Positions 7,010 through 55,346 of a stretch of DNA of 64,000 bases are shown here, in pieces. A model generated the notes under the pieces. It was not told where the DNA came from. It saw only the letters and a program-made list of their open reading frames with translations, and searched no databases. Numbering within the stretch: position 1 is the stretch's first letter; each line of letters opens with the position of its first letter. The DNA comes from a candidate division TM6 bacterium GW2011_GWF2_28_16 (GTDB lineage Bacteria > Patescibacteriota > Microgenomatia > UBA1400 > PJMF01): contig CP011212.1 of assembly GCA_001029715.1 (NCBI GenBank), positions 3,407 to 67,406 on the forward strand, in the 5' to 3' direction. The position numbers and the translations under genes are program-made.

Positions 7010-7017
7010 AATTAAAA

Positions 7018-17770: not shown

Positions 17771-18475
17771 TTATTGTCTCGCACAAGGTGTCTCGTTATA
17801 GCATTGAGTTGAAGTGGTAAATGGACCCATGTCGCAGTTGTTTCCTTTAACCCAAACGTTACAATCTTGAGATGAAGTATAGGCTGAATTAGCACAACAG
17901 TAACACAGGTGAGTGTCGCAATAGTTTTCTTGAGCAGTTGGAATAGGTGTAGCGGTAGTGCTTGGTGCTGGCGTAGAAGTTGGAAAAACAGCTCCATTTA
18001 AAACAAGAGGAACTCCTTCAGCAATCCCATAAACATAATCAAAACTATTAGTAAACTCTGGATTATCTTCTGGAATGCCACATCCTCCCTCACATCCAAA
18101 TTTTTCAATAATTGGATCACTTTTATCGTTTAAAATACTCAAAACTCTATAGCCTTGAGTTCCATCGTCTGGAAAAGGCATGTAAAGGTAAGGCTTACCT
18201 GTCTCTGGATCGCAAGGTACCGCCTTCAAATACGGACGTAATGAATCGCCACCACAATCATCTAAATATTCTCTGGGTGGATAAGATTGGTGATCATTAT
18301 AATAATCTTCAAAAGCCAACTTAATGTCTCTTAGGTCGCTTTTTCTTTGTGCGTCCTTAGCACGATTAACATCAGTTCCAAAAACCTTAAAAATTGCCAA
18401 CAAGATTAACATCAAAAGTGCTATCACTATTAAAATCTCTATCAAGGTTAGTCCGCTTTGCTTCTTCACTTTCAT
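17771..18475 (-). CDS. Type IV pilin with a Cys-rich C-terminal domain
   Basis: Start is the internal Met (MKVKKQSG/LTLIEILIVIALLMLILLAIF), and the longer ORF call is an upstream extension. The C-terminal 50 aa contain 9 Cys (CDTHLCYCCANS...CNVWVKGNNCDMGPF..QCYNETPC). Confidence 0.75.
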   Translation of the reverse strand: MKVKKQSGLTLIEILIVIALLMLILLAIFKVFGTDVNRAKDAQRKSDLRDIKLAFEDYYNDHQSYPPREYLDDCGGDSLRPYLKAVPCDPETGKPYLYMPFPDDGTQGYRVLSILNDKSDPIIEKFGCEGGCGIPEDNPEFTNSFDYVYGIAEGVPLVLNGAVFPTSTPAPSTTATPIPTAQENYCDTHLCYCCANSAYTSSQDCNVWVKGNNCDMGPFTTSTQCYNETPCARQ

Positions 18476-18500
18476 CTTGTTTTGTTTTAATCTTAACACT

Positions 18501-25837: not shown

Positions 25838-27982
25838 GTGTTAAAAAACCACATTCTACTTGAGATCAAAACTAGTAAAGACAGCGAAGAAACAGAAGAA
25901 ACAGCAGTTCAGCTTTTCTCTACTCTGCCAAAATTGAAAAACAATATTTTTGATAAACTTCTTGGCAAAGAAGAAGCTTTAAGTTTCGAAATATTGGTAC
26001 GCGAACAAAGCATTCACTTTTTGGCCCATATTCCTCTGCGTTTGCTCGAGTATTTTAAAGGTGCAATTCACGCTAGTTATCCAGAGGCTGTTATTTCTGA
26101 ATTGCAGTTTGATCCGGTAGATTTTTTCTTTGAACCAGATTCAGTGACTAGAGTTGCCAGTCTTAAATTAAAGAATAGCAGCTATTTACCTCTTAAAACT
26201 TATCAGGAATTCAAAGATATCGACCCACTTTCCACCCTAATGTCGACCCTATCTAAGAATGATGGCAAAGATACCATCCTTATTCAAATGATTTTAGACA
26301 ATGATAGTGAGTTTTTCCCCAAAAAAGGACATATCTCTGCTGAAAAATTGGAAGCTCATTCGCAAAAAAGCCTTATTCAAGAAAAAATGGATAAGAGATC
26401 GCTTAAAACTGCTTTCAAAATTGCCGTGACCACAGATGATCGTAAAAAAAGCAAACTGATTCTAGAAAATATTGCCGCTTCCTACCAAGCTATTACCCAA
26501 AGCGATAGTAATTCTCTTCGTTTAAGACATCGTTATTTTTTCAAAAAGAGTTTCCTAAAGAAAATGGCCAAGCGCAGTTTCAAAGCTTCTCCTCTTCTTA
26601 GCCTAAGTCTTGACGAAACTGCCACTCTTTTTCATTTGCCAAATAAAAAATTAGCTAATATTCACAACATTTCTTGGGGTAAAAAAATCTTAGGTGAAGC
26701 TCCAGAAAGATTACCCGTGGTTGACCGAGATACTCCAGACGAGATTAAAAATGATATTAATGTAATTGCCGAAACCGTTTTCAAGAACAGAAGCACTAAA
26801 TATGGCTTATTGCGTAGCGATCGCCGCCGTCATGTCTATGTCATTGGAAAAACTGGCACTGGTAAGTCCACTCTTTTAGCCAACATGGCTATTAATGATC
26901 TCAAGCATAATGAGGGCATGTGTGTCATCGATCCCCATGGCGATTTAGTGGAAACTTTACTCGATTACATTCCAAAACATCGTATTAACGATGTTGTCTA
27001 TTTTGATCCTTCTGATCAAGACAGAACTGTGCAGATTAACCTTTTTGAGGGTGAGAACGTGGTTCACCGCGAGTTAATTGCTTCGGGAATTATTTCGGTT
27101 TTTCAGAAGCTTTATAGCTATTCTTGGGGTCCAAGACTTGAATATATCTTGCGCAACTGTCTTTTAACTCTACTTAAAAGCAAAGAATCAAAGCTTTCCG
27201 ATGTTCTTGAACTACTAACTAACAAAAACTTCCGCGATAAAATCGTTGAAAATCTCGACGACCCAATCTTAAAAAGCTTTTGGGTTAATGAATATAACAA
27301 AATGCAAGATCGCCAACGCCAAGAATCAATTGCCTCCATTCTCAACAAGGTTGGCCAATTTGTCTCTTCACCAATCGTTCGCAATGTAGTTAACACCAAC
27401 CAATCTTCCTTTAGTATTGAAGAATTGATGGCTCAGGGCAAGATTTTGCTAGTCAACTTATCTCAAGGTCGCTTGGGTGAAGATAATGCCACTCTACTCG
27501 GCGCAATGATGATTACCAAAATTCAATTGGCTGCCATGGCTAGAGTCAATGTTGAAGAAAAAGATCGCAGAGATTTCTATTTATATGTCGATGAGTTCCA
27601 AAATTTTGCTACTGATGCTTTTATCAAAATTCTCTCTGAGGCTCGCAAATATCACCTCAACTTAACCTTGGCTAACCAATATATCGATCAGATTCCTGAA
27701 GAAGTTAGACAGGCTATTTTTGGCAACTGTGGAAACATCATTAGTTTCGTAATGGGTGCTGGCGATGCGACCTATTTCCAGGCAGAATACGGCGGTCTTT
27801 ACACTCAGGATGACCTACTTAATCTAGATAAATATCAAATTATTAATAAAATTTCCATCGATAACGTGCTTAGTCGCCCATTCCCAGCCTACACCCTTAA
27901 TTTAGCGAAGAGCAGCAATCAAAATCGTGAAAAAGTAATCCGCAATAGCCGTGAACGGTATGCGAAAAAGAGAAATTTATAA
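25838..27982 (+). CDS. P-loop ATPase of the TraG/VirD4/TraD (type IV coupling protein)-HerA/FtsK superfamily, no predicted TM segment
   Basis: Walker A VIGKTGTGKSTLLANM; DPHGD motif; Walker B-like LYVDEFQNF; the C-terminal region is TraD/VirD4-like. GTG start. Confidence 0.5.
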   Translation: MLKNHILLEIKTSKDSEETEETAVQLFSTLPKLKNNIFDKLLGKEEALSFEILVREQSIHFLAHIPLRLLEYFKGAIHASYPEAVISELQFDPVDFFFEPDSVTRVASLKLKNSSYLPLKTYQEFKDIDPLSTLMSTLSKNDGKDTILIQMILDNDSEFFPKKGHISAEKLEAHSQKSLIQEKMDKRSLKTAFKIAVTTDDRKKSKLILENIAASYQAITQSDSNSLRLRHRYFFKKSFLKKMAKRSFKASPLLSLSLDETATLFHLPNKKLANIHNISWGKKILGEAPERLPVVDRDTPDEIKNDINVIAETVFKNRSTKYGLLRSDRRRHVYVIGKTGTGKSTLLANMAINDLKHNEGMCVIDPHGDLVETLLDYIPKHRINDVVYFDPSDQDRTVQINLFEGENVVHRELIASGIISVFQKLYSYSWGPRLEYILRNCLLTLLKSKESKLSDVLELLTNKNFRDKIVENLDDPILKSFWVNEYNKMQDRQRQESIASILNKVGQFVSSPIVRNVVNTNQSSFSIEELMAQGKILLVNLSQGRLGEDNATLLGAMMITKIQLAAMARVNVEEKDRRDFYLYVDEFQNFATDAFIKILSEARKYHLNLTLANQYIDQIPEEVRQAIFGNCGNIISFVMGAGDATYFQAEYGGLYTQDDLLNLDKYQIINKISIDNVLSRPFPAYTLNLAKSSNQNREKVIRNSRERYAKKRNL

Positions 27983-37174: not shown

Positions 37175-38080
37175 GTGAATAGAATGAAATCAATCACTCT
37201 GGCTTTGTTGTTAATTAGTTCTTTTTTTTCTATTAGTGTAAAGAGTGCTTTTGCTACAAAACCAGAACCCATCATTGAGACAATAGAGGTTTATCAAACA
37301 AGAACCATCGTTGATAGCGAAACAAAAGAAGAAAGAGAAGCACAGTGTAATTTCTTTAATGGTTGTGTAGAGGCTGGAGAAAACGTGACAATTCACCTCT
37401 CTGGAATCGCCTACAACAATGGACTTCCTCTTCCAGAGGGTTCCAAAGTAAAAGTTCGTTTAAAATCAGAAGGGTGTAATGACTGGCCTGTGGGTGGCGG
37501 TTTCCAAGAAGCCACCCTCTACGACAATTACGTTGAAATCACAGCTCCAGGCTTAAATATTAAAGGCACCTGCTCTTACCAGTTAATTGTCAAGTTGGAA
37601 GCAGGAGAATCAGGACTAACTGGAGACGATAAACCAGAAACAAATAAAACCTATTTGGCAACTTCAACTATTGTTCAAGCTCAATGTTCATCAGAACAAT
37701 GTAATGAGGATCTTACTAGGTCTTCAAGATATGAACTATGTTCACAAATTGATGAAAGCGCTCCAGAATATCAGTCTTGTGCTGATTGTTTTAGTAATGA
37801 TGGGATTTGGACAGCTGTTGGCTGCATACCCAGCAACCCGAATGATGTAATTAAAGTAATTATTACTATTGGCTTGGCACTCGGAGGAGGAGTAGTTTTG
37901 GTAATGATTTTGGCTGGTTCTTTTATGCTTTCCGTCTCTCAAGGAGATCCAAATAAAACCAAAGAGGCCAAAGAAATTATCACCTCTGCCATAATCGGCT
38001 TATTATTTGTGATATTTTCCGTAACTATACTGCAGTTTATTGGTGTAGAAATTTTGCACATACCTGGATTTGGAGAATAA
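37175..38080 (+). CDS. Cys-rich secreted protein with a C-terminal two-helix membrane hairpin (VirB2/TrbC pilin-like topology)
   Basis: Signal peptide (ITLALLLISSFFSISVKSAFA); about 20 Cys in the ectodomain. The C-terminus has hydrophobic helix IGLALGGGVVLVMILAGSFMLSV, polar loop SQGDPNKTKEAKEI, then helix ITSAIIGLLFVIFSVTILQF. This module is shared with the next gene. Confidence 0.6.
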   Translation: MNRMKSITLALLLISSFFSISVKSAFATKPEPIIETIEVYQTRTIVDSETKEEREAQCNFFNGCVEAGENVTIHLSGIAYNNGLPLPEGSKVKVRLKSEGCNDWPVGGGFQEATLYDNYVEITAPGLNIKGTCSYQLIVKLEAGESGLTGDDKPETNKTYLATSTIVQAQCSSEQCNEDLTRSSRYELCSQIDESAPEYQSCADCFSNDGIWTAVGCIPSNPNDVIKVIITIGLALGGGVVLVMILAGSFMLSVSQGDPNKTKEAKEIITSAIIGLLFVIFSVTILQFIGVEILHIPGFGE

Positions 38081-38082
38081 AA

Positions 38083-39156
38083 ATGAAAAAAATTATTCAA
38101 ATTTCACTATTCCAACTTTTATTTGCTTTTCTTTTTACCGGGATTGGATTGGCATATAGGTGTGGTGAAAATTTTAAGGTTTATTATGGAGACGATGTCA
38201 GTACTATGTGCGAATGCGCAGCTGTAAACAACGAAGCTGCCTTCGTAAGCTTTACTAGTGGTGCCCCATCTACATACTGTTGTGGTTTTTATTATGGCGG
38301 TGAATGTCACATTGAAGAACAAAGTGATGAAGAAGAAACAAATACCTATGGGTGTGGAGAGGGCTTTATAGTTCTAAAAGATCAAGATATTTCTGGAATG
38401 TGCCAGTGTTCAATTGTAAATAATCAAGCAGAACTAATGAACTTTGATCAAGGAACGCAAACATACTGTTGCGGAAACGTTCAGGGAACACAATGCAGAA
38501 CTTACGAAGATCCCAATGACTATGCATGTGGAGAAACGAATAGTAGCGCCACCGTGCCAGATGGAGCAATTTGTAAATGTGATGGGGCAACTTGGGAATC
38601 ACGTAAAGACGGTTTCCTTAATTGGAGTAAGGGCATTTGTTGTGGTTGGGTTGTAGACAATGTATGTCTCAGCGAAGATCCTGCCGCAACGAATGCTTAT
38701 TGTGGGGATATTTATCCAGCTGGTGAAAAAAGTTGTATCTGTGGAGGTAGTGGTGGTCCAGTTCCCATGGAAGATGGCAATACTTGCTGCGGCTGGCTAG
38801 AAGAAGGAGTGTGCAAAAGCACCGATGTCGGCATTAGCGATCTTGAAGTCTCTGGTGATTTACTAGATAGTCTCAATCCTCTTTCTTCAGGAGATAATAA
38901 AGATGAACTTAGCACTCCAGGAGGAATTATTTCAAGAGCATTAAGCAATTTTATCTTCCCAATCGCAGGAATTATTCTTTTTGCAGTTTTACTACTCGGA
39001 GGATTCCAAATGCTTTCTGGAGCAACTAATTCAAAATCCTTGGAGGAAGGTAAGCAAAGAATTACTTCTGCAATCATTGGATTTATTATTCTCTTTGCAG
39101 CCTACTGGATTGCGCAATTGCTAGAATTAATCTTTGGTATTCGCATTCTTTCCTAG
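38083..39156 (+). CDS. Cys-rich secreted repeat protein, paralog of the upstream gene, with the same C-terminal two-helix hairpin module
   Basis: Internal ~60-aa repeats (CGEnF.V...D.S.MC.C..VNN.A....F..G....YCCG). The C-terminus (FPIAGIILFAVLLLGGFQMLSGATNSKSLEEGKQRITSAIIGFIILFAAYWIAQLL) aligns with the C-terminus of the 37175 gene, including the shared ITSAIIG core. Confidence 0.6.
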   Translation: MKKIIQISLFQLLFAFLFTGIGLAYRCGENFKVYYGDDVSTMCECAAVNNEAAFVSFTSGAPSTYCCGFYYGGECHIEEQSDEEETNTYGCGEGFIVLKDQDISGMCQCSIVNNQAELMNFDQGTQTYCCGNVQGTQCRTYEDPNDYACGETNSSATVPDGAICKCDGATWESRKDGFLNWSKGICCGWVVDNVCLSEDPAATNAYCGDIYPAGEKSCICGGSGGPVPMEDGNTCCGWLEEGVCKSTDVGISDLEVSGDLLDSLNPLSSGDNKDELSTPGGIISRALSNFIFPIAGIILFAVLLLGGFQMLSGATNSKSLEEGKQRITSAIIGFIILFAAYWIAQLLELIFGIRILS

Positions 39157-39171
39157 AACTAGCATTCTTAG

Positions 39172-39177
39172 TATAAT
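39172..39177 (+). promoter_or_regulatory. TATAAT -10 hexamer 7 nt upstream of the GTG start (leaderless-type)
   Basis: gtataat caagctt GTG. Confidence 0.3.
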
Positions 39178-39184
39178 CAAGCTT

Positions 39185-41965
39185 GTGTTTAATAGATTTT
39201 TCAAAAAATCAGCGTTGTTTCTGCTCCTCTCGCCCATTTTATTTCTAAGCAATCCTAAGCAAATATTTGCTCAAGCTGCTGACGATGATCAGGCTCAAAT
39301 TGTCGATCAAAGTAAGCTTTATACAATCATGCCGATGTTTTTACCAAGTGCTCCGAGCTCTTTGAATTATAGTGATTTATTAACCACCATGACTAAGGAT
39401 CAGGGATATGAAGCGCACTGTGCAGGCGCGCAGTGGGTAATTAGTGAGAAACAATATGGCAATGCAGCTAAATTTTTTAGCCAGTTGCCAAGAGAAAACT
39501 TCTCTACGCTTGCGACACAAGTCTTTGGCAGTTCTGATCCTTATATTGTAGATTTCACCAAAGCTCGCATTCCAGTAATCCGAGGCATGGAATCGAAGTC
39601 AGACACCATGAAGAATAGTTCTATTGAAGGAATGTTTGGAGCAAATTATCAAACCATAAAAGACATCTACATGCTTAATTCAGCTGGTGTTAGCGAGAGA
39701 CTTCTAACTTCATATCAGCAGTGTTTAGCAAAAAGTCAAAACCTAGTCAGTATTAATAAAATTTGTGCTGAAATCAAAGGCGAGCCCTGCTCTCTTAATA
39801 AAGAGTATTCCATCGAGGTAAATGAGAATCCTGTTACTTTCAAAGTGCTAGAAATTCTAGAATGGTTCTCTCAAATTCGTCCAAGTCTGAGTGGTGATGA
39901 ACTTTATCAGCAAGTTTGTGCAGACATTACAGGGGGTGGTTCCACCGACGCAGCTGAGTTTAATGAAGCCCATACTGATCTCCCCGACGTTAGTCAAGAA
40001 TTTTTAGACAAAACCAAAGCAGCTGTCGGTGTCATCTCTATTGATATGGACACTCTCTATCGTTTAGCTTTTTTGGTTTTGGTTCCCACTCAAAACATCA
40101 GTGGAGATGCAGACAAATTTCACTTCCTGCAATCCAGCCCAAGAATTAACGCAGAAGTTCAAGCTCCAATTTTCATTGCTTTCAAAATTCCTGAATTTGG
40201 CACTAATAAATCTAAATTCGTTAATAATATCGATAGTTTAGAGCTAACAAAAATGGCTATTCAGGCTGCTGCACAGAACAAAGCAGATCTAGACGAGCAG
40301 AACACTAATCGTGATAAAAATTATGAAGCAGCTAAAAACGCTCCCTACATTCAAGACCCCGTCATTAAATGTCCTGAGGGTTTTCCTCAGTGCACAAGAA
40401 GTTCAGACAATGCTCTTCTTAATGTCTTAGTTGATATGATTAACGGCGCAGCACCAAATTGTAAAGATGTTACTCTGAGAGTAGTTGAAGAAACGACTAT
40501 CGAAGAAATTTTTAATCAAGAAGACCAAAATTGGGAAAAGGCTGGCGATCTTTTTACTCCCGCCAATAAAGATATAAAAGAGAATTTATATAAAAGTAAT
40601 ACCAATGAAGAAACCATTAAAAAACTTGGTATCGACAGCTCTAATATATTTAATTGGCAATTAACCGTCGACGAAAAAAAGGAAAGCTATGGCACCCCAG
40701 TTGTTGTTAATGCCTATCTCGTTCTTCCAGTTGGAGAAACCATAAAAGACGTCAATAAATCTCTGTCAATTTTTTGGAATGAAGAAGACTTTTTTAATCT
40801 GGTTAAAACTAATGTCATTGAAGATATGAAAAACGCTGATGGCACAAATAAAATGGGCTCAATTCCAAAATATTACACGATTAAAGGAGCTGATGTTGGT
40901 ATAGCTTCCTCAGATGTCAAAAGCTACATTGATACTTGCGAAGAAACTCTTGTTTTTGGCGAAGATGGCCTCTATCGCACAGAATATACTTGTACTAGCT
41001 ATAATTATGGTTTTGGACTGGATGAAGAAAAAGACGCTCCACTCTATCCAGATTTTGGCCTTGGATTTATGTTAAGAAAAATCCAACAAACCCTGCGTGC
41101 TACCTTTGATCAAACCTATGATTACATTGCTTCCTGCCAAAGAGTTGAAGACATGTTCCTTGGTCGCTGTAGTGGCGATCCGAGTGGGAAAACTCAATCC
41201 GTATGTACCGGCGAATCATTTAAAAATATTAAGAACATGCCTAGTTATGAAGGCATTCCTCAATTTGCCAAAGATGTTTATGCAACCGGCATCGCTCCAA
41301 AAATTACTTCCGAATTAATTGAGGCCTATGAATATGCTGAAGAACAAACTGGTATTCCATGCGAAGTTGTAGCTGGCATTCATTTTACAGAAGGAGGACT
41401 CAGTCCAACTAATTCTGTCTTTGATGGAGGTACCCTACACGGCTCACTAAAAGATGATGCCAAAGGTGCTATGGAGCATTTGATCAGTAAATGGCCAGGA
41501 CAATTCGATAAAAATAACATTGAATATGAGGATTTAGTCACAGCCATCGGTGGCTTTAATGGTACTGGCAATCAAAATTGTGGCAAAGAAACTCGTTGGC
41601 TGAATGGTGGCAAATGCCCTTCAGAGTTTGCTTCTGAAGATCATCCCCATCCACTTGCTTACATTGATGAAAGACATAGCGATATGGACTTAATCTTTTG
41701 CTTAGACTTCACTGAGTTTAATTGCAGTGTTAGTCCAACTGCGGCGACCTTGGCTACATTGCGCAGCCAACTTGATGAAAAACAAGTTAATTCAGGGTTT
41801 TCAGATGAAACAAAAGAAAATTTAATTAGCGACGCTGCAAATTATTGCTTCGCCAACTCCAGCGTGTGTCAAAGTCTAAGCGACGGTGGTAAATATCCAA
41901 AATATCAAAGGCCTGGCTCAGTTACCACGGCTATTTTACTGAATGAATCTGGGGTTGGACAATAG
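39185..41965 (+). CDS. Large secreted protein (about 925 aa), Cys-containing, with a possible lytic-transglycosylase-like C-terminal segment (candidate VirB1-like hydrolase)
   Basis: A GTG start gives a signal peptide (FNRFFKKSALFLLLSPILFLSNPKQIFAQA). The C-terminal GIPCEVVAGIHFTEGGLSP resembles SLT motif I (xAIaxxES). Otherwise no known domains. Confidence 0.45.
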   Translation: MFNRFFKKSALFLLLSPILFLSNPKQIFAQAADDDQAQIVDQSKLYTIMPMFLPSAPSSLNYSDLLTTMTKDQGYEAHCAGAQWVISEKQYGNAAKFFSQLPRENFSTLATQVFGSSDPYIVDFTKARIPVIRGMESKSDTMKNSSIEGMFGANYQTIKDIYMLNSAGVSERLLTSYQQCLAKSQNLVSINKICAEIKGEPCSLNKEYSIEVNENPVTFKVLEILEWFSQIRPSLSGDELYQQVCADITGGGSTDAAEFNEAHTDLPDVSQEFLDKTKAAVGVISIDMDTLYRLAFLVLVPTQNISGDADKFHFLQSSPRINAEVQAPIFIAFKIPEFGTNKSKFVNNIDSLELTKMAIQAAAQNKADLDEQNTNRDKNYEAAKNAPYIQDPVIKCPEGFPQCTRSSDNALLNVLVDMINGAAPNCKDVTLRVVEETTIEEIFNQEDQNWEKAGDLFTPANKDIKENLYKSNTNEETIKKLGIDSSNIFNWQLTVDEKKESYGTPVVVNAYLVLPVGETIKDVNKSLSIFWNEEDFFNLVKTNVIEDMKNADGTNKMGSIPKYYTIKGADVGIASSDVKSYIDTCEETLVFGEDGLYRTEYTCTSYNYGFGLDEEKDAPLYPDFGLGFMLRKIQQTLRATFDQTYDYIASCQRVEDMFLGRCSGDPSGKTQSVCTGESFKNIKNMPSYEGIPQFAKDVYATGIAPKITSELIEAYEYAEEQTGIPCEVVAGIHFTEGGLSPTNSVFDGGTLHGSLKDDAKGAMEHLISKWPGQFDKNNIEYEDLVTAIGGFNGTGNQNCGKETRWLNGGKCPSEFASEDHPHPLAYIDERHSDMDLIFCLDFTEFNCSVSPTAATLATLRSQLDEKQVNSGFSDETKENLISDAANYCFANSSVCQSLSDGGKYPKYQRPGSVTTAILLNESGVGQ

Positions 41966-42773
41966 TTTTCTTCTTTTTGTTGACAACTGTGGAAGAATTT
42001 TCTGGCTTTAATTTAAACAAACGCATTGCACCAAGTTGCAATAGTTCTGCCACTGCTAAAAAAGTATTAGAGCTGGTGTTCTGAGCCTGTAAACCAAGGT
42101 TTTTATCTTCAATGCCATAAAGTAGCAAGGTTGGCAAATTACTTTTAGCTAAAAGATCTTCATTGTTTTGATCCATATCTTTGAGCAAATAAAAAACTGC
42201 TTCACAGTAAGAATTGCTTGGAGAAATATCTAAGTTAAGCTTGCCAAAATCTGGAATAAAATTATTAATTGTTACCAAGTGATTATCAATGCCTTTATAA
42301 AGATTCTCGTAAGCAAAATAGAGTTGATTGAGTTTTTCCAAATCCTCCACTCCACATAAAATTAGCAAATCGGCTTGAGCGCCGGCATAAGAAAATTCAA
42401 GTGCTGAACTATCGAGTGGAGCGACACCTTTTTTTGGCTTGATAGTTAAATAAAAACGCTTGTCTTGCTCGCCAATGTAATAAGAAACTTTGTCGACCTG
42501 ATCTTCCTGATAAGGAAAACTAACCAAGAGATTTTCTTTACCTAATTCATGTTCAATTAACTTAACATCAATAAAATCATTTAGTTCGGTAGGAATTTTT
42601 TGTTTGAGTTTTGGAGTTAGTAGTCGCGCCTCCTGTTTAGCACTTAGAAATGAATATAGACAATAAGTTGCTAAAAATAAATCTAGATTTTCTTCTTCTG
42701 GAAAAATAATTAGAGCATTTTTGCTTATTTCTAAAATGTCCTTGAATTTATTAGTTTGAGCTTGATCGATCAT
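41931..42773 (-). CDS. Hypothetical cytoplasmic protein
   Basis: ORF only; no confident motif. No DHH motif was found. Confidence 0.4.
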   Translation of the reverse strand: MIDQAQTNKFKDILEISKNALIIFPEEENLDLFLATYCLYSFLSAKQEARLLTPKLKQKIPTELNDFIDVKLIEHELGKENLLVSFPYQEDQVDKVSYYIGEQDKRFYLTIKPKKGVAPLDSSALEFSYAGAQADLLILCGVEDLEKLNQLYFAYENLYKGIDNHLVTINNFIPDFGKLNLDISPSNSYCEAVFYLLKDMDQNNEDLLAKSNLPTLLLYGIEDKNLGLQAQNTSSNTFLAVAELLQLGAMRLFKLKPENSSTVVNKKKKTIVQPQIHSVK

Positions 42774-42860
42774 CTATGATTGTTTTAAATGTTTTCCCGA
42801 AGAATGTCAAGAATTATCTTTTGCAGTTTTGCTCTGTTTCATCTAGAATATACTTGTTTT

Positions 42861-44537
42861 ATGTTACGTAAAAAAGCTTCTCACCTGCTTTTGGTTTTGT
42901 TTTTGGTTTTTTCGTGCTTTTTGATGTCTGCTAAACCTGCAAAGGCTAGTACTATTTCTGACTGGCTTTCTTCAGTCTTTCATATTAAAGAAGCTACAAC
43001 CAGCTATTCCAACGCTCTTCTTGAGGAAGGAGTGGCTCAAGAAAAAAATGTTTCCTCGACTTGGGCTAATAGTTTTAACTACATAAATGGCAACGTTTAT
43101 GGTGGTGAAACAATGGCCAAAATTAGTGGCATAACTGGCGCAGACAAAATTGCTCTTGAAGAAAGCTTGGGAGATGGCATGCTGGGAGACGTAAACAAAG
43201 GTATCGTTGCTCTCTACACTCCTCCAGCTAGCACCAGAACCTACGTTGCTGATGTGATGAAATCAGCCAAAATTATTCCAGAAGCTCAAGCTCAAGGCCT
43301 TGGCTTTGCTGCTCTTGATCCAATTTTAGAAACCTGGAAATCTTTTCGTAATCTAGCTTATCTTTTCTTTGTACTTATTTTTCTCATCATTGGTTTTATG
43401 ATCATGTTCAGAACCAAAGTTGGACAAGCCGCCATTACCGCCCAGCAGGCCATTCCCAGCGTCATCATTGCCATGCTGGCTGTTACTTTTTCTTATGCCA
43501 TCGCAGGATTTATGATCGATATTATGTATGTAGTGATGTACATGCTAGCTGGCTTTTTTACCGAGGGTTCAGACATTGTGACGAGAAATATATTTGGCCT
43601 AGTGGGCTTAATGTTCAAAGGAACCACCGGTTCCACTCAGAATGCCATTGAACAATTCATGGAAGATGCTTTAAACATTGGTTTAGTTGGTGAAGCTATT
43701 GCCTGGATGTCCAGTTTACTCGGCACAGTAATTGTCGGTATTGCTATTCTTTTCGCTACTTTCAAAGTCTTTTTTGAATTAGTCAAAACCTATGTAGCCG
43801 TACTTATTCAAATTATTTTTTCGCCAATTATCTTAATGCTTGGTGCTTTTCCAGGTAAAAATGTCTTTGGCAAATGGCTCAAAGACCTCGCCGGCAACCT
43901 AATTCTTTGGCCCGTAGTTCTACTCTGTATTTTAGTGCAACGCATGCTAACCGCCCCGATTCGCAATCTTCAAGGCACGGGAGAAACTCTCGATGCAAAT
44001 TTCGGTGGTGGCTTCATGCCTCCATTCTTAGTCGGGCAGGGACAAGCTTCTATCATTCCAGTCATTCTTGGTATTGGCATACTCCTCGTCATTCCAGAAA
44101 TCATGCAAGAAGTTAAAAAAGCCATGCACGTTGATAGCGGAATCTTTGGGCAGTTAGCTGGATCAATGGGCAAGGGCTTGCAAGGAGCATGGCAAGGCGG
44201 AGATGTTGGATTACCAGTTAAAATGCCTTTTGGTGTAAAAGACGCTGTTAGTGCTGGAGCCAGACTAAGCAGGTCCGGCATTGAACATCTTGGACAAAAA
44301 TTAATTGTCAATAATGGTGGAACAATTGTACCTCCAAATCCTGCTTCTGTTGATATTGTCAGTGAACAAGGGGCCTCTACAACTACTAATAAAAATCGTC
44401 AAAACGTTGATGTTAATAACGTTGTTAATAGGGTTAACACAGCATCTAGACCAATTAACCCAGTTACTCAAGCGACTGGACCTAGACCGAAACCCACACC
44501 GATTAAAAACATTGATGAACTGTCTGACATTATTTAA
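42861..44537 (+). CDS. VirB6/TrbL-like polytopic membrane protein (candidate T4SS channel component)
   Basis: Start at the internal Met gives a signal peptide (LLLVLFLVFSCFLMSAKPAKA). An extracytoplasmic domain of about 130 aa is followed by 5-6 TM helices and a hydrophilic Asn-rich C-terminal tail. The architecture matches Gram-positive VirB6-like proteins, but this is inference. Confidence 0.4.
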   Translation: MLRKKASHLLLVLFLVFSCFLMSAKPAKASTISDWLSSVFHIKEATTSYSNALLEEGVAQEKNVSSTWANSFNYINGNVYGGETMAKISGITGADKIALEESLGDGMLGDVNKGIVALYTPPASTRTYVADVMKSAKIIPEAQAQGLGFAALDPILETWKSFRNLAYLFFVLIFLIIGFMIMFRTKVGQAAITAQQAIPSVIIAMLAVTFSYAIAGFMIDIMYVVMYMLAGFFTEGSDIVTRNIFGLVGLMFKGTTGSTQNAIEQFMEDALNIGLVGEAIAWMSSLLGTVIVGIAILFATFKVFFELVKTYVAVLIQIIFSPIILMLGAFPGKNVFGKWLKDLAGNLILWPVVLLCILVQRMLTAPIRNLQGTGETLDANFGGGFMPPFLVGQGQASIIPVILGIGILLVIPEIMQEVKKAMHVDSGIFGQLAGSMGKGLQGAWQGGDVGLPVKMPFGVKDAVSAGARLSRSGIEHLGQKLIVNNGGTIVPPNPASVDIVSEQGASTTTNKNRQNVDVNNVVNRVNTASRPINPVTQATGPRPKPTPIKNIDELSDII

Positions 44538-48323: not shown

Positions 48324-51300
48324 ATGGCAGCAATAGATAGTAAACAAAGTTCAGAAAAAAGAATTCCATTAAAGGAATTGTCTGGCGTTAGTAAATTCAG
48401 CCGTGAAGATGTGGCTCGAATTCTAAGTTTAATTAAGCTGTGGATTTATGATTTTCACAATAAATCTTACAAAGAAAGCAAGGTTTCTGGAGGATTTCGT
48501 GTAAATAGATTTAGCGGAGAAGAATTTGACCTCAGCACTTACTTAGATATTATCTCTGATAAATTTGAGAATCCTTTTGAAGAACCTCACCTTTTTATTT
48601 CTGATTTGATTAATTTTGTTGATCAACTTTATCATCCAATTCCAGATGTTTTTATTGCAAATGAAAATTCTCGAAATATTGTTGCGGAATTGGGAAAACT
48701 TGGGAGTGTGTTTGAATTAATTGGGGTTTATCCAGACAAAGATAAGGTTAGTATAGAAGATCTTCAGAGAATGGAAGATTTTTCAATTAGGCAACTAATT
48801 GTCAAGCACATTGAAAAAATAGAAGTAATTCTTGATTTAAAACCAACCAAGGAAGAAGAAGAGCCGGAAGATGAAAAAGATACCGTTAAAGATGGAGCTG
48901 CAGGCATACCTAAAACAGTTACTGGCAAAACCTCCAAAGATGAATCTCCAGATAGCTCTGATAGCGATGGGGATGATGAAATAGATAAGAAGCTTGAAAA
49001 AAATAAACCTCCCCTCAAAATCTCCGAGCTTGATCCTCAGTCTAAACTTTATCTTCAATCGCTATCCATTATTACTATTAATCAGGCCCTTAGTAAATAT
49101 TTTAATGAAGCTTCTTTAGCTAAGTATGGTTTTCCTCCAGGAACTCGAATAACTTTTGATCAGCTGCCACTAGAAATACGCAAGCAATTAATGGATCGTG
49201 CTTTCTTGCAAGTGGAAAATCTGCTTCTCAGTGAAAAATTCACTCTTGAGGATCTAATCAAAAATCCAGCCCAAAGAATTAGTTTTAGTAACCAAGCTTC
49301 ACTTAGCTTGCTGATGGATCCTCGAGGTCTCAACTTATTAAACGGCGCTATTCGCGAGATCACTACCGCGACAGATAAAGTTGAAAAAATTAAACAAAAC
49401 CAAGAAGAAAAAGCAGAACTTGATAGCAAAAAAGCTGAGGAGATTATAGAAGAAGCTTCTGAGCAGGCTGGAATTGATCCAAATTTCGCTAGAAATATTG
49501 AATCTGAACTCGATATTATTAAAAATGAATCACGACTGGATGAAGTTTTTTTTGAAAAGCTTAGTGGAATTGCCAGCGAAGTAGATCAATTTAAAATCAG
49601 ACAAGCAATTGTCTCAGGCAAAGCCTACATCGAGGTTTTGATTCAACAGGGTGTCCCACCAGAATATATCATTCCTGATCCTAGAAACTTTGATTACAAC
49701 AGATTTGTAAATATTTTTGGCAATAACTTAGACGCAGCTCAGTTTAATGCTCACAAAGAAGAAATTGCTAATTTAATAATCTTTTATTGGAAACGCAAGA
49801 GAGCCATTTGGACGCGTGAATTCAGTCAAGAATTTGGGCTGGAAAAATATACTCCAGAAGAAGCTCAAAGACTCTTTGATGAAATTTCCAAAGATCCAGA
49901 AAAACGAAAAAGACTAGAAATATTAGCCAGGTTTAATTTAAATTATGGCGGAAGTGAAATTGCTAGCCAACTAGTTGAAAGAGACGGCTCTAAATTAAGC
50001 GAGGAAATGAAGGCTTTTCGCGAACAACAAGAAAAGCTCATTAAAGAATATTTAAAAGAAGAAATTAATAAACTTTCTGCAGCAGAACAGCAAGAAACTT
50101 TTGCTGTTTGGCTTCAGTTTTATCAACCAGGATCGCCACAAATAGAATACAGCGTTGAGAATTTCTATCAACTAATCGATTCTCAGTCAAATTCAATGGA
50201 TTTTTCAGAATTGGCTGCTGCAGAGGCTTTTGGCGCTGGTTCTTTTAACCAAAATGGTAGCGGATGGATGCAAAATGCTTTTGCCCCTGGAGGTGATTAT
50301 CAGGGTACAGGCCTCATGGATAGTGCCGCTGGACAAGCTGGCAAAAAATTAGCAACTAAAGCAATTGGCGAGGGTCTCTATGTAGCCTTGGATGCGGCTG
50401 GTGGCTGGGGTGAAGTTCTTAGAGCAGCCGAAACAGCAGCTCCATGGATTAAAAAACTAAAAGAAAAAATAATCGAGCAAGGTTTAGAAAAATTTTTGGA
50501 GTCTATTAAAAAGTACTGGCCTATACTTTTAGCTTTTACTCTCCTGGCTGCCCTTGGTGGATTTCTTGCTGGAGTGCTGGCAGCGCTAGCAACTTATTAC
50601 TTTTTAAAAAACGGTTTAGCAGGTATTAAAAATCTTTTTACCGGAACTCAAAAGGTTGTTGGTCAAATAGGAAATGGGGTCAGTGGAATCGCTGGTGAAA
50701 AAGCTAGTATTAGTAATCAAGCGATCGTAAAACAGAACAGCATTGGACAACTATCTGCTCCCGGAAACACTCTCGCTACTCAACTTTCCCCAGCTATGAT
50801 TACTGCTGGACAAGCGGTCATTGCTACTTTTACCGGCACCGCACTTTTAGTTTTTATGTATCAAACTAGTCTAAATTCTGCTTTTCTAACTGATTTTCCA
50901 AAAAATGAAACTGATTTTGCTAACTCTGTTGAAAAAACTTCTAAATATGCTGAAATTAGCAAAACTGCCAAAATTAAGAGTGGCTGTCCAAATCCAGAAA
51001 GTAACGACACAAAATGTGAAAACCCTTCTTTTCCAGTTACTATTGAGTACACTATTACCATTAAGCCAAAAGAGGACTTTACCATTCAAATCACTGATCT
51101 CCAAGATAAAATTAAGTTTAAACAAAGTAAAAAAGGTTGGGAAGAAGCTGGTGCCTCAGCTCCATCAATTGAAAATGAAAAGAATCTGGAATTTGATTAT
51201 TTTAAAGAAATTATTAAAGAGCAAGGTGGTCTAACTAGTGAAAACATTAACATTACCCCTACTCCCACTCCGGGAAGCGAAACAACTAATGATACAAATC

Positions 51301-52022
51301 CTGCGGAAACTCAAGACAATATCATTATTCCTCCAGGCAGCGAACTAACTTTTACTTATTCTCTAGAAGATCTCGGCACTGGCTATAATCACACCGCCAT
51401 AATTAATACTATTGAGGCTAATTTTTATTATCAAAATGGATTTATGTCTGGAATGGATAACATGATTACGGCTTCGAGAGTCTGCCTTGGAGATTGTAGT
51501 GCTGGAGCAGGCTGCTGGCCAACCAATGGTATCTTAACCCAGCTACCATTTGGAGTTGGAACTCCAGACGCTGATGCTTCTCATAGACCACCTCTTTCTG
51601 GTGGATATTCAGATGCTTACGACATTGGCGGTAGTGGTGGTCATCCCAACGTTTACGTACCTTTCCCAGGAGATCTTTGTTTTAAAGGATGTAGCGATAC
51701 TGGCTACGGCTGCTACTTTACCTTAACTTTTGATGGTTCTGGCAGTAGCCAAAAACTGCTGTTTGCTCATTTCGAACAACCGAACTCTCAGCTCCCACAA
51801 GCAGAAACATGTATGGTTGTAGACGAAGGATTTTTACTCGGCCCAATGGGAACTCGTGGCAATTCAACTGGAGTCCATTTACACTATGAGATAGACTTTG
51901 AAGGGCAATTTTATCACCCAAGCTCAAGAAATTTCTCGATTCTTGAAACTCTTGTGCCAGAAACAGATAAAGGAAATTATCCACCTGTTTTAAACGATGG
52001 AGTAAGCACTTGCTATGAATAA
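48324..52022 (+). CDS. Large bitopic protein (1,232 aa): about 700-aa cytoplasmic N-region, 2 TM helices, extracytoplasmic C-region ending in an M23-like peptidase domain (candidate secretion-system cell-wall hydrolase)
   Basis: TM helices WPILLAFTLLAALGGFLAGVLAALATYYFL and AGQAVIATFTGTALLVFMY. The C-terminal segment contains ASHRPPLSGGYSDAYDIGG and an HxH motif in GNSTGVHLHYEIDFEGQFYHPSS. Confidence 0.5.
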   Translation: MAAIDSKQSSEKRIPLKELSGVSKFSREDVARILSLIKLWIYDFHNKSYKESKVSGGFRVNRFSGEEFDLSTYLDIISDKFENPFEEPHLFISDLINFVDQLYHPIPDVFIANENSRNIVAELGKLGSVFELIGVYPDKDKVSIEDLQRMEDFSIRQLIVKHIEKIEVILDLKPTKEEEEPEDEKDTVKDGAAGIPKTVTGKTSKDESPDSSDSDGDDEIDKKLEKNKPPLKISELDPQSKLYLQSLSIITINQALSKYFNEASLAKYGFPPGTRITFDQLPLEIRKQLMDRAFLQVENLLLSEKFTLEDLIKNPAQRISFSNQASLSLLMDPRGLNLLNGAIREITTATDKVEKIKQNQEEKAELDSKKAEEIIEEASEQAGIDPNFARNIESELDIIKNESRLDEVFFEKLSGIASEVDQFKIRQAIVSGKAYIEVLIQQGVPPEYIIPDPRNFDYNRFVNIFGNNLDAAQFNAHKEEIANLIIFYWKRKRAIWTREFSQEFGLEKYTPEEAQRLFDEISKDPEKRKRLEILARFNLNYGGSEIASQLVERDGSKLSEEMKAFREQQEKLIKEYLKEEINKLSAAEQQETFAVWLQFYQPGSPQIEYSVENFYQLIDSQSNSMDFSELAAAEAFGAGSFNQNGSGWMQNAFAPGGDYQGTGLMDSAAGQAGKKLATKAIGEGLYVALDAAGGWGEVLRAAETAAPWIKKLKEKIIEQGLEKFLESIKKYWPILLAFTLLAALGGFLAGVLAALATYYFLKNGLAGIKNLFTGTQKVVGQIGNGVSGIAGEKASISNQAIVKQNSIGQLSAPGNTLATQLSPAMITAGQAVIATFTGTALLVFMYQTSLNSAFLTDFPKNETDFANSVEKTSKYAEISKTAKIKSGCPNPESNDTKCENPSFPVTIEYTITIKPKEDFTIQITDLQDKIKFKQSKKGWEEAGASAPSIENEKNLEFDYFKEIIKEQGGLTSENINITPTPTPGSETTNDTNPAETQDNIIIPPGSELTFTYSLEDLGTGYNHTAIINTIEANFYYQNGFMSGMDNMITASRVCLGDCSAGAGCWPTNGILTQLPFGVGTPDADASHRPPLSGGYSDAYDIGGSGGHPNVYVPFPGDLCFKGCSDTGYGCYFTLTFDGSGSSQKLLFAHFEQPNSQLPQAETCMVVDEGFLLGPMGTRGNSTGVHLHYEIDFEGQFYHPSSRNFSILETLVPETDKGNYPPVLNDGVSTCYE

Positions 52023-53048: not shown

Positions 53049-53903
53049 ATGAAACAGCACCCAATCCCACAGGATATCACCAACTATAAGTTTCATCTTA
53101 TTGGCAGCATGACGCTTAAGCAATTTGCAGAAGTGGCTGTAGCTGCAGTCTTGGCTTTTATTATTTTTAAAACAAATTTAATCGCTATTGTTAAATGGCC
53201 ACTAATTTTCTTTACGGTTGGTTTGGGAGCAGCTTTAGCTTTTGTACCAATTGAAGAAAGGCCTCTAGATCACTGGATCCAAACTTTTTTCAAAAACATC
53301 TATAAGCCTACAAAGTTTTTTTGGAAAAAAGCTAGTAAAATTCCAGATTTTTTCAATTATAAAATTAGTAGTGTTCAAAGTGATTTTTTCGCACCCAACG
53401 TTAATTTAAACCCAGCTCGTAAACAACGTATTAATGAATACATTAAAAGTATTCCTGAAGCGGAAAAGGTTGATGAATTTGACGCCGGAGAAAATCAAAA
53501 GATCAGTGCCTTACTCAATCAGTTTAATGATGTAAAAGTTGATCAAGATCAGATTAAAATTGAAGTCAAAAAACAAGAAAAACCAAACCTGCAAACAAGA
53601 GTTAGAGATCTGAAAGCTCCTCAAGAGGAACTTGATAATAAAAAATATTCAACCAACCAAATTTTTGGCTCAGTAATTGGTCAGAATGGACAAAAAGAGT
53701 CAGAAGTAATTATTGAAATAAAAGATCAAAGTGGCGAAAGTCTTAGAGTCATCAAAAGTGATGAGGATGGCAATTTTGTTGCTAACAATCCACTAAAAAA
53801 TGGATCTTATCAAGTAATAGCTGAAAAAAACGATCAAAAATTTCCAATTTTGCAAGTAGAACTCACTGGACAAATTCTCGATCCCCTTGTAATCAAAGCA
53901 TAA
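53049..53903 (+). CDS. PrgI/VirB3-like membrane protein (N-terminal two-TM module) with a C-terminal soluble extension
   Basis: The N-terminus PQDITNYKFHLIGSMTLKQFAEVAVAAVLAFIIF followed by a second TM matches the PrgI-family pattern (DI..Y....G.T.RQ... then TM hairpin). It lies upstream of VirB4-like genes. Confidence 0.45.
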   Translation: MKQHPIPQDITNYKFHLIGSMTLKQFAEVAVAAVLAFIIFKTNLIAIVKWPLIFFTVGLGAALAFVPIEERPLDHWIQTFFKNIYKPTKFFWKKASKIPDFFNYKISSVQSDFFAPNVNLNPARKQRINEYIKSIPEAEKVDEFDAGENQKISALLNQFNDVKVDQDQIKIEVKKQEKPNLQTRVRDLKAPQEELDNKKYSTNQIFGSVIGQNGQKESEVIIEIKDQSGESLRVIKSDEDGNFVANNPLKNGSYQVIAEKNDQKFPILQVELTGQILDPLVIKA

Positions 53904-53927
53904 AATTTAGTAAACTATTGCTAGCTC

Positions 53928-55337
53928 ATGAGCGACAAAGTAATTAGTTCCACCACTCAAGAATTTCTTGATGTCTATGACATTGTCAACGACATGGTTC
54001 TTTTAAAAGATGGCACTGCATCGATGATCCTTCAAGTGGGAACCATGAATTTCAGTCTTTTAGCTGAGCAAGAACAAGACGCCATTATTTTTACCTATGG
54101 TTCTCTGCTCAACTCGCTTAATTATCCAATCCAGATCAGCATTCAATCTCAAACTAAAGATGTAACTAAATATTTACGCTTACTTGACGAAAGAATTTCA
54201 AAAGCTAGCACGGATCGCAAGGCAACTCTCATTAAAAAATATCGAGATTTTGTGGCAGCTTTAATCAAAGAAAGAAATGTTTTACAAAAAAACTTCTTTG
54301 TAACTATTCCTGCTAGCCCTGCGGAGATGGGCTTGTTTACAGCAACTAGTGTTTTACCAGGCAAAACTGCTTTTGATATCAACACTGTTGAAAAAAGCGT
54401 CATTTTAGAAAAAGCTGTAAATCTACTTGGGCCAAGACGAGATCATTTAACTTCTCAATTTGGTCGCCTGGGGCTTTACGTCAGACAATTAAACACTCAA
54501 GAAATTATTCAAAACTTCTATATTAATTACAACCCTGAGGCTGCTGAGGGTCAAGAAATTAGCAGTAATGAAAATTACACCACTCCTCTAGTTAGAGCGA
54601 GTTTTGGAAGGAAAATTATGCAAGTAAATGATCCAAGCACCCAAGCACAACCACTACCAATTAATCCCGCAGATAATAGTAGGCCTCCTGCACCAGTTAC
54701 TCCAACGGAAGTAATTTTGGAAAATCCAGCTGTGGAGAATGTTGCTCCCGTAGCACCTCCAGTGCCAGAAGCTTCAGTTGTTCAAGAAACTGAGCTAAAG
54801 ATACAGGCACCAACTCCAATTCAAGAAACCACTCCAGTAGTTGCTCCCCATGAAGAACCAATTTTTAGTCCAGAAGAAATTTTAAGTGGCAAAACACCTG
54901 CAGAAGAACAAGTTCTTCAAGAAAACAAGGTTCAAGAAGTACAGGCTCCGCCAATTGTCCCTCCAACTCCAGATCCAATTTTAGAACAAGCTTCATCGCC
55001 AGTTTCTACTCCAGTTCCAGAACAAACTCCGATTTCAGATCTAACTCAGACTCCAGAGTTAGATCTCAATCTCGATCCTAGTCTAATAAATGCTGATCCA
55101 ATTTCTGAAACCGTTACTCAAGAACCAACATTAGAACCCATCCCAGTAATAACTCAAGAAACAGCGGTGGCTCAGGAAACAAATGACTTTGCTGAAGAAA
55201 TTAAGCCTCTGCAAAATAAGTTTGAGACCGCTGAATCAGTAATTGAATCACCTATAGCCGTCGAGGAAGCTCAAATTCAAAATCAAACTCAAGTAGCAGA
55301 ATCTACTCCGACAGAGCCAGAAGAAGCACAAATATAA
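53928..55337 (+). CDS. Protein with a VirB4/CagE/TrbE N-terminal-domain-like region followed by a Pro/Glu/Gln-rich low-complexity tail
   Basis: FLDVYDIVNDMVLLKDGTASMILQVGTMNFSLLAEQEQDAIIFTYGSLLNSLNYPIQISIQS resembles the conserved N-terminal domain of VirB4-family proteins. There is no ATPase motif. It is immediately upstream of the full VirB4. Confidence 0.4.
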   Translation: MSDKVISSTTQEFLDVYDIVNDMVLLKDGTASMILQVGTMNFSLLAEQEQDAIIFTYGSLLNSLNYPIQISIQSQTKDVTKYLRLLDERISKASTDRKATLIKKYRDFVAALIKERNVLQKNFFVTIPASPAEMGLFTATSVLPGKTAFDINTVEKSVILEKAVNLLGPRRDHLTSQFGRLGLYVRQLNTQEIIQNFYINYNPEAAEGQEISSNENYTTPLVRASFGRKIMQVNDPSTQAQPLPINPADNSRPPAPVTPTEVILENPAVENVAPVAPPVPEASVVQETELKIQAPTPIQETTPVVAPHEEPIFSPEEILSGKTPAEEQVLQENKVQEVQAPPIVPPTPDPILEQASSPVSTPVPEQTPISDLTQTPELDLNLDPSLINADPISETVTQEPTLEPIPVITQETAVAQETNDFAEEIKPLQNKFETAESVIESPIAVEEAQIQNQTQVAESTPTEPEEAQI

Positions 55338-55346
55338 AATATAAAT

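Follow-up and report, generated by a model that had tools for sequence, protein, structure and literature searches.

Two adjacent genes, p1 and p2, in the 64,000-nucleotide stretch of contig CP011212.1 analysed here (the window; candidate division TM6 bacterium GW2011_GWF2_28_16) encode members of PF18895, the known family of VirB2-like pilins of Patescibacteria, and join an extremely conserved C-terminal two-helix hairpin to large and variable N-terminal ectodomains. We lean towards the interpretation that they are the leading pair of pilin-family genes of an origin-proximal, monoderm-type type IV secretion system (T4SS), with hairpin-anchored ectodomains that face outward and bind the host. 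The comparisons below establish that p1 and p2 are paralogues within this family, and they also establish how the domains are laid out, that synteny is conserved and that conservation follows a gradient along the two proteins.

p1 and p2 share a homologous C-terminal hairpin

The two genes are co-oriented tandem open reading frames (ORFs) with 2 nt between them. For p1, a GTG at 37175 (the listed ORF start) would add 3 residues and give a protein of 301 aa; the ATG at 37184 is the likelier start because it lies 6 nt downstream of a Shine–Dalgarno-like AAGGGTG motif. Both proteins begin with a signal-peptide-like segment ending in an AxA-type site, MKSITLALLLISSFFSISVKSAFA followed by T in p1 (SAFA/T) and MKKIIQISLFQLLFAFLFTGIGLA followed by Y in p2 (GLA/Y), and Ala24 of p1 is nearly invariant among 81 homologues.

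A first-pass annotation of the window had described each C-terminus as a hydrophobic helix, a short polar loop and a second hydrophobic helix, and had aligned the two C-termini with each other. Hydropathy agrees with this layout, with hydrophobic helices split by a polar, Lys-rich loop of 6–13 residues in both proteins. Structure prediction, which the annotation had suggested, was done with AlphaFold2 on alignments of 78 sequences (p2 family) and 81 sequences (p1 family) and gave confident models for both (mean predicted local distance difference test score, pLDDT, of 82 for p2 and 83.8 for p1), with C-terminal helix pairs at residues 219–251 and 256–285 of p1 and 279–312 and 317–351 of p2.

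The alignment of the C-termini also goes beyond chance. BLASTP aligned only the last 80 residues of p1 and p2 (26% identity, E = 6e-6), and a C-terminal profile of each family picked out only the other ORF among the 483 six-frame ORFs of the window (E = 1e-6 and 2e-5). When compared with hhalign, the p1 and p2 hairpins matched with 97.2% probability (E = 3.9e-11 over 70 columns), and they matched the short array pilins of related loci with probabilities of 99.9% and 98.3%; as reversed-sequence controls we compared a broad short-pilin profile (A5) with both hairpin profiles, for which the best E was 0.008. The hairpin loop, SQGDP.K, is invariant, as are the C-terminal tails, IPGFG in p1 and FGIRIL in p2. 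The two hairpins are homologous, and p1 and p2 are a paralogous pair. An identity of merely 26% across 80 mostly hydrophobic residues might be taken as a chance resemblance of hydrophobic helices, with the repeats of p2 as compositional artefacts, but we consider this extremely improbable: the reciprocal profile detection is unique in the window, the hhalign E value contrasts with reversed-profile controls of at least 0.008, the loop and tail motifs are conserved across hundreds of homologues, and a profile of the p2 repeat matches four stretches of the family member P0002 with E = 1e-39. For the C-termini themselves, the profile, hhalign and homologue evidence excludes chance similarity.

The hairpins belong to PF18895 and show no significant similarity to canonical VirB2

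Both proteins score above the gathering threshold of PF18895 (T4SS_pilin; 28.4 bits for p1 and 39.2 bits for p2, threshold 26.6), and the model was matched by all aligned relatives, 78 of the p2 family and 81 of the p1 family (159/159; E < 0.1). The first-pass annotation had called the pair candidate VirB2/TrbC-like pilins. The PF18895 match, the signal peptide plus hairpin layout and the T4SS locus uphold the pilin part of that description; direct homology to canonical VirB2/TrbC could not be demonstrated. Against PF04956 (TrbC/VirB2; threshold 27.9 bits), p2 reached 16.3 bits (E = 0.011) and p1 gave no match. Sub-threshold TrbC matches do recur in the p2 family (64/78, E < 0.1), but we discounted them as support, given that the unrelated two-transmembrane (2-TM) families DUF996 (64/78) and RseC_MucC (42/78) do likewise. 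The annotation had also proposed a profile–profile comparison with TrbC/VirB2, which we ran with hhalign against a reference built from Agrobacterium VirB2 of the Ti plasmid and 120 relatives, all of them PF04956 proteins of 102–193 aa without an ectodomain. The p1, p2 and broad (112 short array pilins) profiles gave probabilities below 1% and E values of 0.07–0.43, no better than reversed-sequence controls, with a VirB2 profile that is narrow (effective sequence number, Neff, 3.8). Fold searches returned generic hairpins only.

The best specific relative is NF045849, the Mbov_0395 pilin-like conjugal transfer protein of Mycoplasma integrative and conjugative elements (ICEs), which p1 matches at 23.6 bits (E = 3e-5) and p2 at 17.7 bits (E = 2e-3). 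Neither reaches the equivalog cut-off of 40 bits, and p1 and p2 are therefore remote relatives of this family, not members. The model is matched by 81/81 p1-family members (best E = 4e-8) and by 53/112 short pilins. Almost no other NCBIfam model matches the hairpins; a few short pilins match pLS20_p028 and TIGR03758, an ICE family. Among 72,556 plasmids and 50,697 phage records, tblastn found nothing that matched the hairpin of p2.

Variable, Cys-rich ectodomains precede the hairpins

Ahead of the hairpins p1 and p2 are unrelated, as BLASTP aligns their C-termini only and AlphaFold2 predicts different folds. No Pfam or NCBIfam model matched either ectodomain, and when the profiles of the two families were searched against every PDB chain, just spurious matches to G-protein-coupled receptors and titin came back (E of at least 0.1). 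The first-pass annotation had counted about 20–30 Cys in each ectodomain, which holds for p2 (24) but not for p1 (only 10); neither hairpin contains any.

The N-terminal part of p1 is predicted as a beta-sandwich and is the most variable part of the protein. Foldseek gave weak matches to CBM56, beta-GRP, TapA and FnIII structures (E of about 2e-3, low TM-scores), and we set aside the top match, 6s7t_F, as not meaningful (root-mean-square deviation of 39.7 Å). In the stalk that follows, Cys 168, 186, 199, 202 and 214 are invariant and Cys 173 nearly so (alignment A2).

The CxC...YCCG repeats previously seen in p2 are four modules of about 45–60 aa with six Cys each, R1 to R4, with the pattern C-x10-15-CxC-x14-20-CC-x7-C and Cys spans at residues 27–75, 91–138, 149–195 and 207–244; in the AlphaFold2 model they are small and beta-rich. 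The Cys residues of the last module (C207, C218, C220, C235, C236 and C244) are nearly invariant in the family, and L261, N265 and P266 of the linker are fully invariant, as are P279 and G280, which open the hairpin part. Cys counts in the p2 family step by six (6/12/18/24), and the four-module form seen in the window, the largest in that family, is shared only by P0001 and P0002; more distant relatives reach five modules.

We defined this 6-Cys module (CGE..CxC..CCGW..C) in the present analysis, and it is not a curated family. A profile built from 50 modules, with invariant columns C, G, C, C, C, C, G and C, matched 25 of 1.84 billion representative proteins. Nine were p1- or p2-family proteins already recovered. 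Among the 16 others, 14 end in the PF18895 hairpin (6 p1-type and 8 p2-type, with up to five modules), and the remaining two are a spurious repetitive protein and a truncated fragment of 127 aa. PF18895 pilins, of both paralogue types and with 0–5 copies, were the only carriers of the module found.

The pair is the rule across related loci

Among 80 species loci retrieved with the p1 family, 73 have a p2-type gene no more than 150 nt behind a p1-type gene. The p1-type protein always has 190–395 residues ahead of the hairpin (median 303) and a median of 12 Cys. The p2-type protein ranges from a bare pilin (116 aa, 0 Cys) up to 543 aa, and 15 of the 73 p2-type orthologues are minimal pilins with 90 or fewer residues ahead of the domain. 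Pilin genes number 3–12 in 21 loci, and those beyond the pair encode short proteins (median 142 aa, 52 residues ahead of the domain). A profile search of the window ORFs found no short pilin there, and the window's own lineage has the pair alone. The first-pass annotation had judged the arrangement unusual; it is instead the rule in this lineage, and arrays of VirB2-like pilins have already been published (PMC12102498, PMC10633639).

In some relatives (loci L031, L048, L049, L045 and L080) the leading pair is followed by 9–12 pilin-domain genes in a row. Several internal pilins in these arrays carry 6–12 Cys and 100–455 residues ahead of the hairpin, and ectodomains are therefore not limited to the first two genes.

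Constraint rises from the distal ectodomain to the hairpin

Column entropy is 0.3–1.0 bits in the hairpins versus 1.9–3.1 bits in the ectodomains. The same gradient appears against the contig of a congener (L084), whose neighbouring genes are 91–97% identical to those of the window (rate of synonymous substitution, dS, of about 0.5). Both hairpins have a nonsynonymous rate (dN) of 0 at dS of 0.28–0.43, and in p2 all 79 of 79 hairpin residues are identical at dS 0.43. The membrane-proximal modules R3 and R4 are 88–89% identical, with dN of about 0.05 in R3, R4 and the linker. In the distal modules R1 and R2, amino acid identity is about 50%, with dN of 0.48–0.49 and saturated synonymous differences (pS 0.67–0.76), and nucleotide identity falls from 99% to 66–78% over 38119–38568 and then recovers. 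By entropy and by dN, then, the ectodomains, which the annotation had suggested checking for hypervariability, vary far more than the hairpin.

We rejected positive selection as a reading of the divergence of R1 and R2, because dS is saturated there too and dN/dS is uninformative. With dS also raised, we take replacement or recombination of a distal cassette, or very old alleles, to be the safer reading.

A second fast-diverging surface gene stands beside the pilin pair. Divergently upstream of p1 lies a gene for a SpoIID-domain secreted protein with an N-terminal coiled coil (35194–36948, minus strand), which against its L084 orthologue shows 61% identity, dN 0.34 and dS 1.0, compared with 91–97% identity for the other neighbours.

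The pair lies in an origin-proximal, monoderm-type T4SS locus

The features of the pair and of the surrounding locus are listed in Table 1. The first-pass annotation had placed the pair at the head of a T4SS-like cluster, and this is loosely right: the PrgI/VirB3-like, TrsD-like and VirB4 genes follow 14–16 kb downstream (53049–57545). The gene order is the same on an 841-kb contig and on the congener contig.

Table 1 Features of the p1–p2 pair and of the T4SS locus, in window coordinates
Feature	Coordinates	Strand	Description and evidence
p1	37184..38080	+	Pilin-like with large ectodomain; 298 aa from ATG; 271 homologues
p1 signal peptide	37184..37255	+	Residues 1-24, ...SAFA/TKP; hydropathy; putative cleavage site
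p1 beta-sandwich ectodomain	37256..37669	+	Immunoglobulin (Ig)/FnIII/CBM-like; residues 25-162; AlphaFold2 strands 30-160, pLDDT >90
p1 Cys-rich stalk	37670..37828	+	Residues 163-215; GIWTAVGCIP motif
p1 two-helix hairpin, pilin-type	37829..38077	+	Residues 216-298; PF18895 match 232-286; loop SQGDPNKTKEAKE invariant; C-terminal IPGFG tail
p2	38083..39156	+	Pilin-like, four 6-Cys modules; 357 aa; 101 homologues
p2 signal peptide	38083..38154	+	Residues 1-24, ...GLA/YRCGE; hydropathy; putative cleavage site
p2 modules R1+R2 (distal pair)	38155..38505	+	Residues 25-141; confined to 4-module proteins
p2 modules R3+R4 (membrane-proximal)	38506..38823	+	Residues 142-247; pLDDT >90; kept in most homologues
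p2 linker	38824..38916	+	Residues 248-278; LNPL...STPGG motif; pLDDT 62-69
p2 two-helix hairpin, pilin-type	38917..39153	+	Residues 279-357; PF18895 match 283-347
VirD4-like coupling ATPase	25838..27982	+	PF10412, PF12696; apart from cluster, 9 kb upstream of pair
orf943, secreted 20-Cys protein	39134..41965	+	No Pfam, NCBIfam or PDB match
orf582, polytopic membrane protein	42789..44537	+	6-7 hydrophobic segments (hydropathy); weak NF045889 (Mbov_0396) match, E 0.008
PrgI/VirB3-like	53049..53903	+	PF12666, 29.7 bits (threshold 27)
TrsD-like, resembles VirB4 N-terminal region	53928..55337	+	NF041427, E 6.6e-6; NF045975, E 1.1e-5
VirB4-family ATPase, monoderm (CD1110/MPF_FATA-like)	55347..57545	+	NF045971, 394 bits (cut-off 325); PF19044, PF12846
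dnaA	57656-59212		Directly downstream of VirB4 gene; followed by dnaN, yidC

Immediately after p2 comes orf943, which follows the pair in L001 and L084 as well, with no terminator-like site between the genes; it probably belongs to the same operon as p1 and p2. The TTG listed as its start reaches 23 nt into p2 and is probably wrong, with the true start further downstream. A promoter and terminator scan of 36800–42100 found nothing above shuffled expectation. Where arrays are longer, about 3.4 kb separate the pair from the short pilins, leaving room for an orf943-like gene. We tentatively regard orf582 as a candidate VirB6-like channel subunit. A 1,232-aa protein encoded at 48324–52022 (plus strand) has two hydrophobic segments and a sub-threshold C-terminal match to Peptidase_M23 (22.7 versus 28.7 bits); L001 has a protein with the same weak match in the same position, and it may be a VirB1-like wall hydrolase of the T4SS.

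The gene order parallels the Mbov_0395/0396/0397 module of Mycoplasma ICEs, with orf582 matching Mbov_0396 weakly and the TrsD-like and VirB4 proteins matching Mbov_0397. Judged from sequence relationships, the NF045849 link and the Mbov-like gene order suggest that the pilins may be native to the monoderm lineage and not borrowed from diderm T4SSs.

Elsewhere the window encodes Rho, Obg, RadA and SpoIID- and VanW-type wall proteins (VanW/PG_binding_4), and it looks like a small chromosome near its origin. Two giant plus-strand ORFs at 125–7009 and 6988–16695, of 2,294 and 3,235 aa, are likely to encode surface or adhesion proteins; the larger has four Laminin_G_3 lectin-like domains and one domain each of the glycine-rich, clostridial-neurotoxin receptor-binding-like and Ig kinds, and the smaller has no Pfam match. 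Two genes resembling type IV pilins or type II secretion system pseudopilins (N_methyl motif, T2SSG) at 17204–17764 and 17771–18613 (both minus strand) are part of another pilus system. The genomes closest to the window bear the labels Ca. Pacebacteria, Ca. Microgenomatus and Ca. Woesebacteria, which all fall within Patescibacteria. Many locus-bearing patescibacterial metagenome-assembled genomes (among L003–L082) are titled 'uncultured Pseudomonadales bacterium', and others Limisphaerales or Methylococcaceae; these are evidently mislabelled.

A model for the hairpin and its ectodomains

We propose that each precursor would be exported by Sec and its signal peptide then removed, as its sequence indicates. 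The hairpin would insert with both N and C termini outside and the short basic loop inside, a topology predicted from hydropathy and AlphaFold2 that would leave the ectodomain on the cell surface. The invariant hairpin would be the working part, specifically contacting the membrane machine of the T4SS, like subunits of a VirB2-style polymer, or both; we infer this contact role because of the extreme purifying selection on the hairpin and its family context. The N-terminal domains, presumably stabilised by disulfides (6 Cys per module), would project outward as exchangeable modules that vary from locus to locus and may bind host surfaces. The diversity of such ectodomains would stem from substitutions, from modules being gained or lost (0–5 copies) and from distal modules being replaced.

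Several points weigh against this interpretation. The pilin label rests on topology, context and curated naming, with no significant similarity to VirB2/TrbC; virB4 is 14 kb away from the pair, beyond genes on both strands; the literature searched reports no pilus made of PF18895 proteins; and the divergence of R1 and R2 could reflect recombination or misaligned paralogous modules. Canonical VirB2 relatives (102–193 aa) are also without ectodomains, and dense packing of 25–30 kDa appendages on a VirB2-type helix is unproven. In F- and T-pilus structures the pilin termini point outward from the filament and the lumen is lined by the loop between the helices, so that by analogy N-terminal appendages on such a filament are geometrically conceivable. 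We regard it as possible, though rather unlikely, that the ectodomain-bearing PF18895 proteins polymerise into a monoderm T4SS pilus, a 'bottle-brush' of swappable, disulfide-locked modules that sets host specificity. If true, large displayed domains would be seen for the first time in a conjugative-type pilin family, host range would have a modular determinant evolving by replacement of distal-end cassettes, and the family would point to an origin in monoderm ICE 'pilin-like' proteins, not in diderm VirB2.

The principal alternative, doubtful in our view yet to be taken seriously, is that p1 and p2 do not polymerise at all, and that the hairpin is a specific anchor or docking element holding adhesins or a VirB5/PrgB-like factor at the T4SS channel, so that only the short pilins (about 115–150 aa) of other genomes, if any, build a filament. 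The constant 190–395 pre-hairpin residues of p1-type proteins, next to short additional array pilins, would suit such a division of labour, and with no short pilin in the window a filament here would need to be built from bulky subunits only. The adhesin role is also vacant, as no PrgB-like adhesin was detected in Patescibacteria T4SS loci (PMC12102498), and Gram-positive T4SSs are generally without pili (PMC12857230). However, 15/73 p2-type orthologues are bare, presenting the same hairpin undecorated and orthologous to the decorated form, and simple anchors seldom show dN = 0 with an invariant loop and tail, although docking to a machine could explain that constraint equally well.

It is improbable, we think, that 'T4SS pilin' is a misnomer for generic 2-TM surface or envelope proteins, such as cell-wall or host-interaction factors, that stand near a T4SS by coincidence in a compact genome. 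No significant link between the hairpins and canonical VirB2 was found, unrelated 2-TM families match them at TrbC-like sub-threshold levels, the upstream-side neighbours are cell-wall proteins (SpoIID, VanW/PG_binding_4) and 14 kb separate the pair from virB4, all of which such coincidence would accommodate. It would not readily explain why the conjugation-specific NF045849 matches every p1-family member (81/81) and pLS20_p028 and TIGR03758 appear among the short pilins, why 1,135 assemblies have pilin genes close to virB4 and such genes are essential along with other T4SS genes (PMC12102498, PMC10633639), or why the gene order parallels Mbov_0395/0396/0397 of Mycoplasma ICEs.

Relation to known systems

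VirB2-like pilins (PF18895/PF04956) were reported in 1,948 Patescibacteria assemblies, in a monoderm-type T4SS near dnaA (Quinonero-Coronel et al. 2025, PMC12102498), with 441 tandem arrays of 2–11 pilin genes at a mean identity of 25% that are abundant in Microgenomatia (PMC12102498). In Southlakia epibionticum the pilin genes were shown to be essential (Wang et al. 2023, PMC10633639), and no T4SS other than that of Patescibacteria, pilin genes included, is known to be essential for the growth of the cell that has it (PMC10633639, PMC12857230). p1 and p2 resemble these arrays in Pfam family, in tandem arrangement at about 25% identity, in a chromosomal, relaxase-poor monoderm-type T4SS by dnaA and in phylum. 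They differ from the small pilins described in the main texts of those publications in having N-terminal ectodomains of 200–400 residues. The main texts of PMC12102498, PMC10633639 and PMC12857230, and the results of literature searches with related terms, make no mention of large ectodomains, of the order of a large and then a second pilin, of the 6-Cys module or of the divergence gradient. The family assignment is already known; as far as these main texts go, the variant architecture, in which an invariant hairpin bears a large, modular and Cys-rich ectodomain, is undescribed, and it is widespread.

With TrbC, VirB2 and TraA (PF04956), which form the T-pilus and F-pilus, the pair shares a Sec signal peptide, two hydrophobic helices, a short basic loop and VirB3-, VirB4- and VirB6-type neighbours, and polymerisation is proposed for the family. 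Unlike in TrbC/VirB2 proteins, no significant sequence or profile similarity to that family is found in p1 and p2; whereas the canonical pilins span 102–193 aa, the mature forms of p1 and p2 have about 190 and 255 residues in addition; and the canonical pilins act in diderms with an outer-membrane core complex, whereas the T4SS here is monoderm-type. VirB2 and TrbC are cyclised head to tail, which seems incompatible with a large N-terminal domain.

The Mbov_0395 family (NF045849) and pLS20_p028-type transmembrane proteins share with p1 and p2 a monoderm conjugation context. The NF045849 model covers the hairpin alone (80 positions), without the ectodomains that p1 and p2 carry, and Mbov_0395-family proteins are encoded on mobile ICEs, whereas p1 and p2 are encoded on the chromosome near its origin. 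Minor pilins of the VirB5 type and PrgB-like adhesins are functional analogues, sharing only the proposed role in target-cell contact; they have no VirB2-type hairpin, and no sequence or fold similarity to p1 or p2 was detected. We also considered the Pam pili of candidate phyla radiation (CPR) bacteria, which are likewise built from Sec-exported, CPR-specific surface proteins with Ig-like domains and paired cysteines and occur in Microgenomatia (bioRxiv 10.64898/2026.03.03.709456). Unlike p1 and p2, Pam pilins use donor-strand exchange and chaperone-like partners, sit in a different operon and have no two-helix hairpin, and we rejected a link on the grounds of the different assembly principle and the missing hairpin.

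Implications for Patescibacteria

Whether the pilins of Patescibacteria are native to monoderms or borrowed from diderms was left open by PMC12102498. The published idea of their co-option from diderm systems is qualified by our comparisons, in which the only specific sequence relatives found are monoderm ICE proteins. Patescibacteria, which live attached to host microbes, may account for a large part of the diversity of bacteria. With an invariant hairpin, fast-diversifying modular ectodomains and a position as the first genes of the locus, the pair is a concrete candidate for the host-contact surface of the Patescibacteria T4SS, and the determination of host range in these organisms becomes a testable question.

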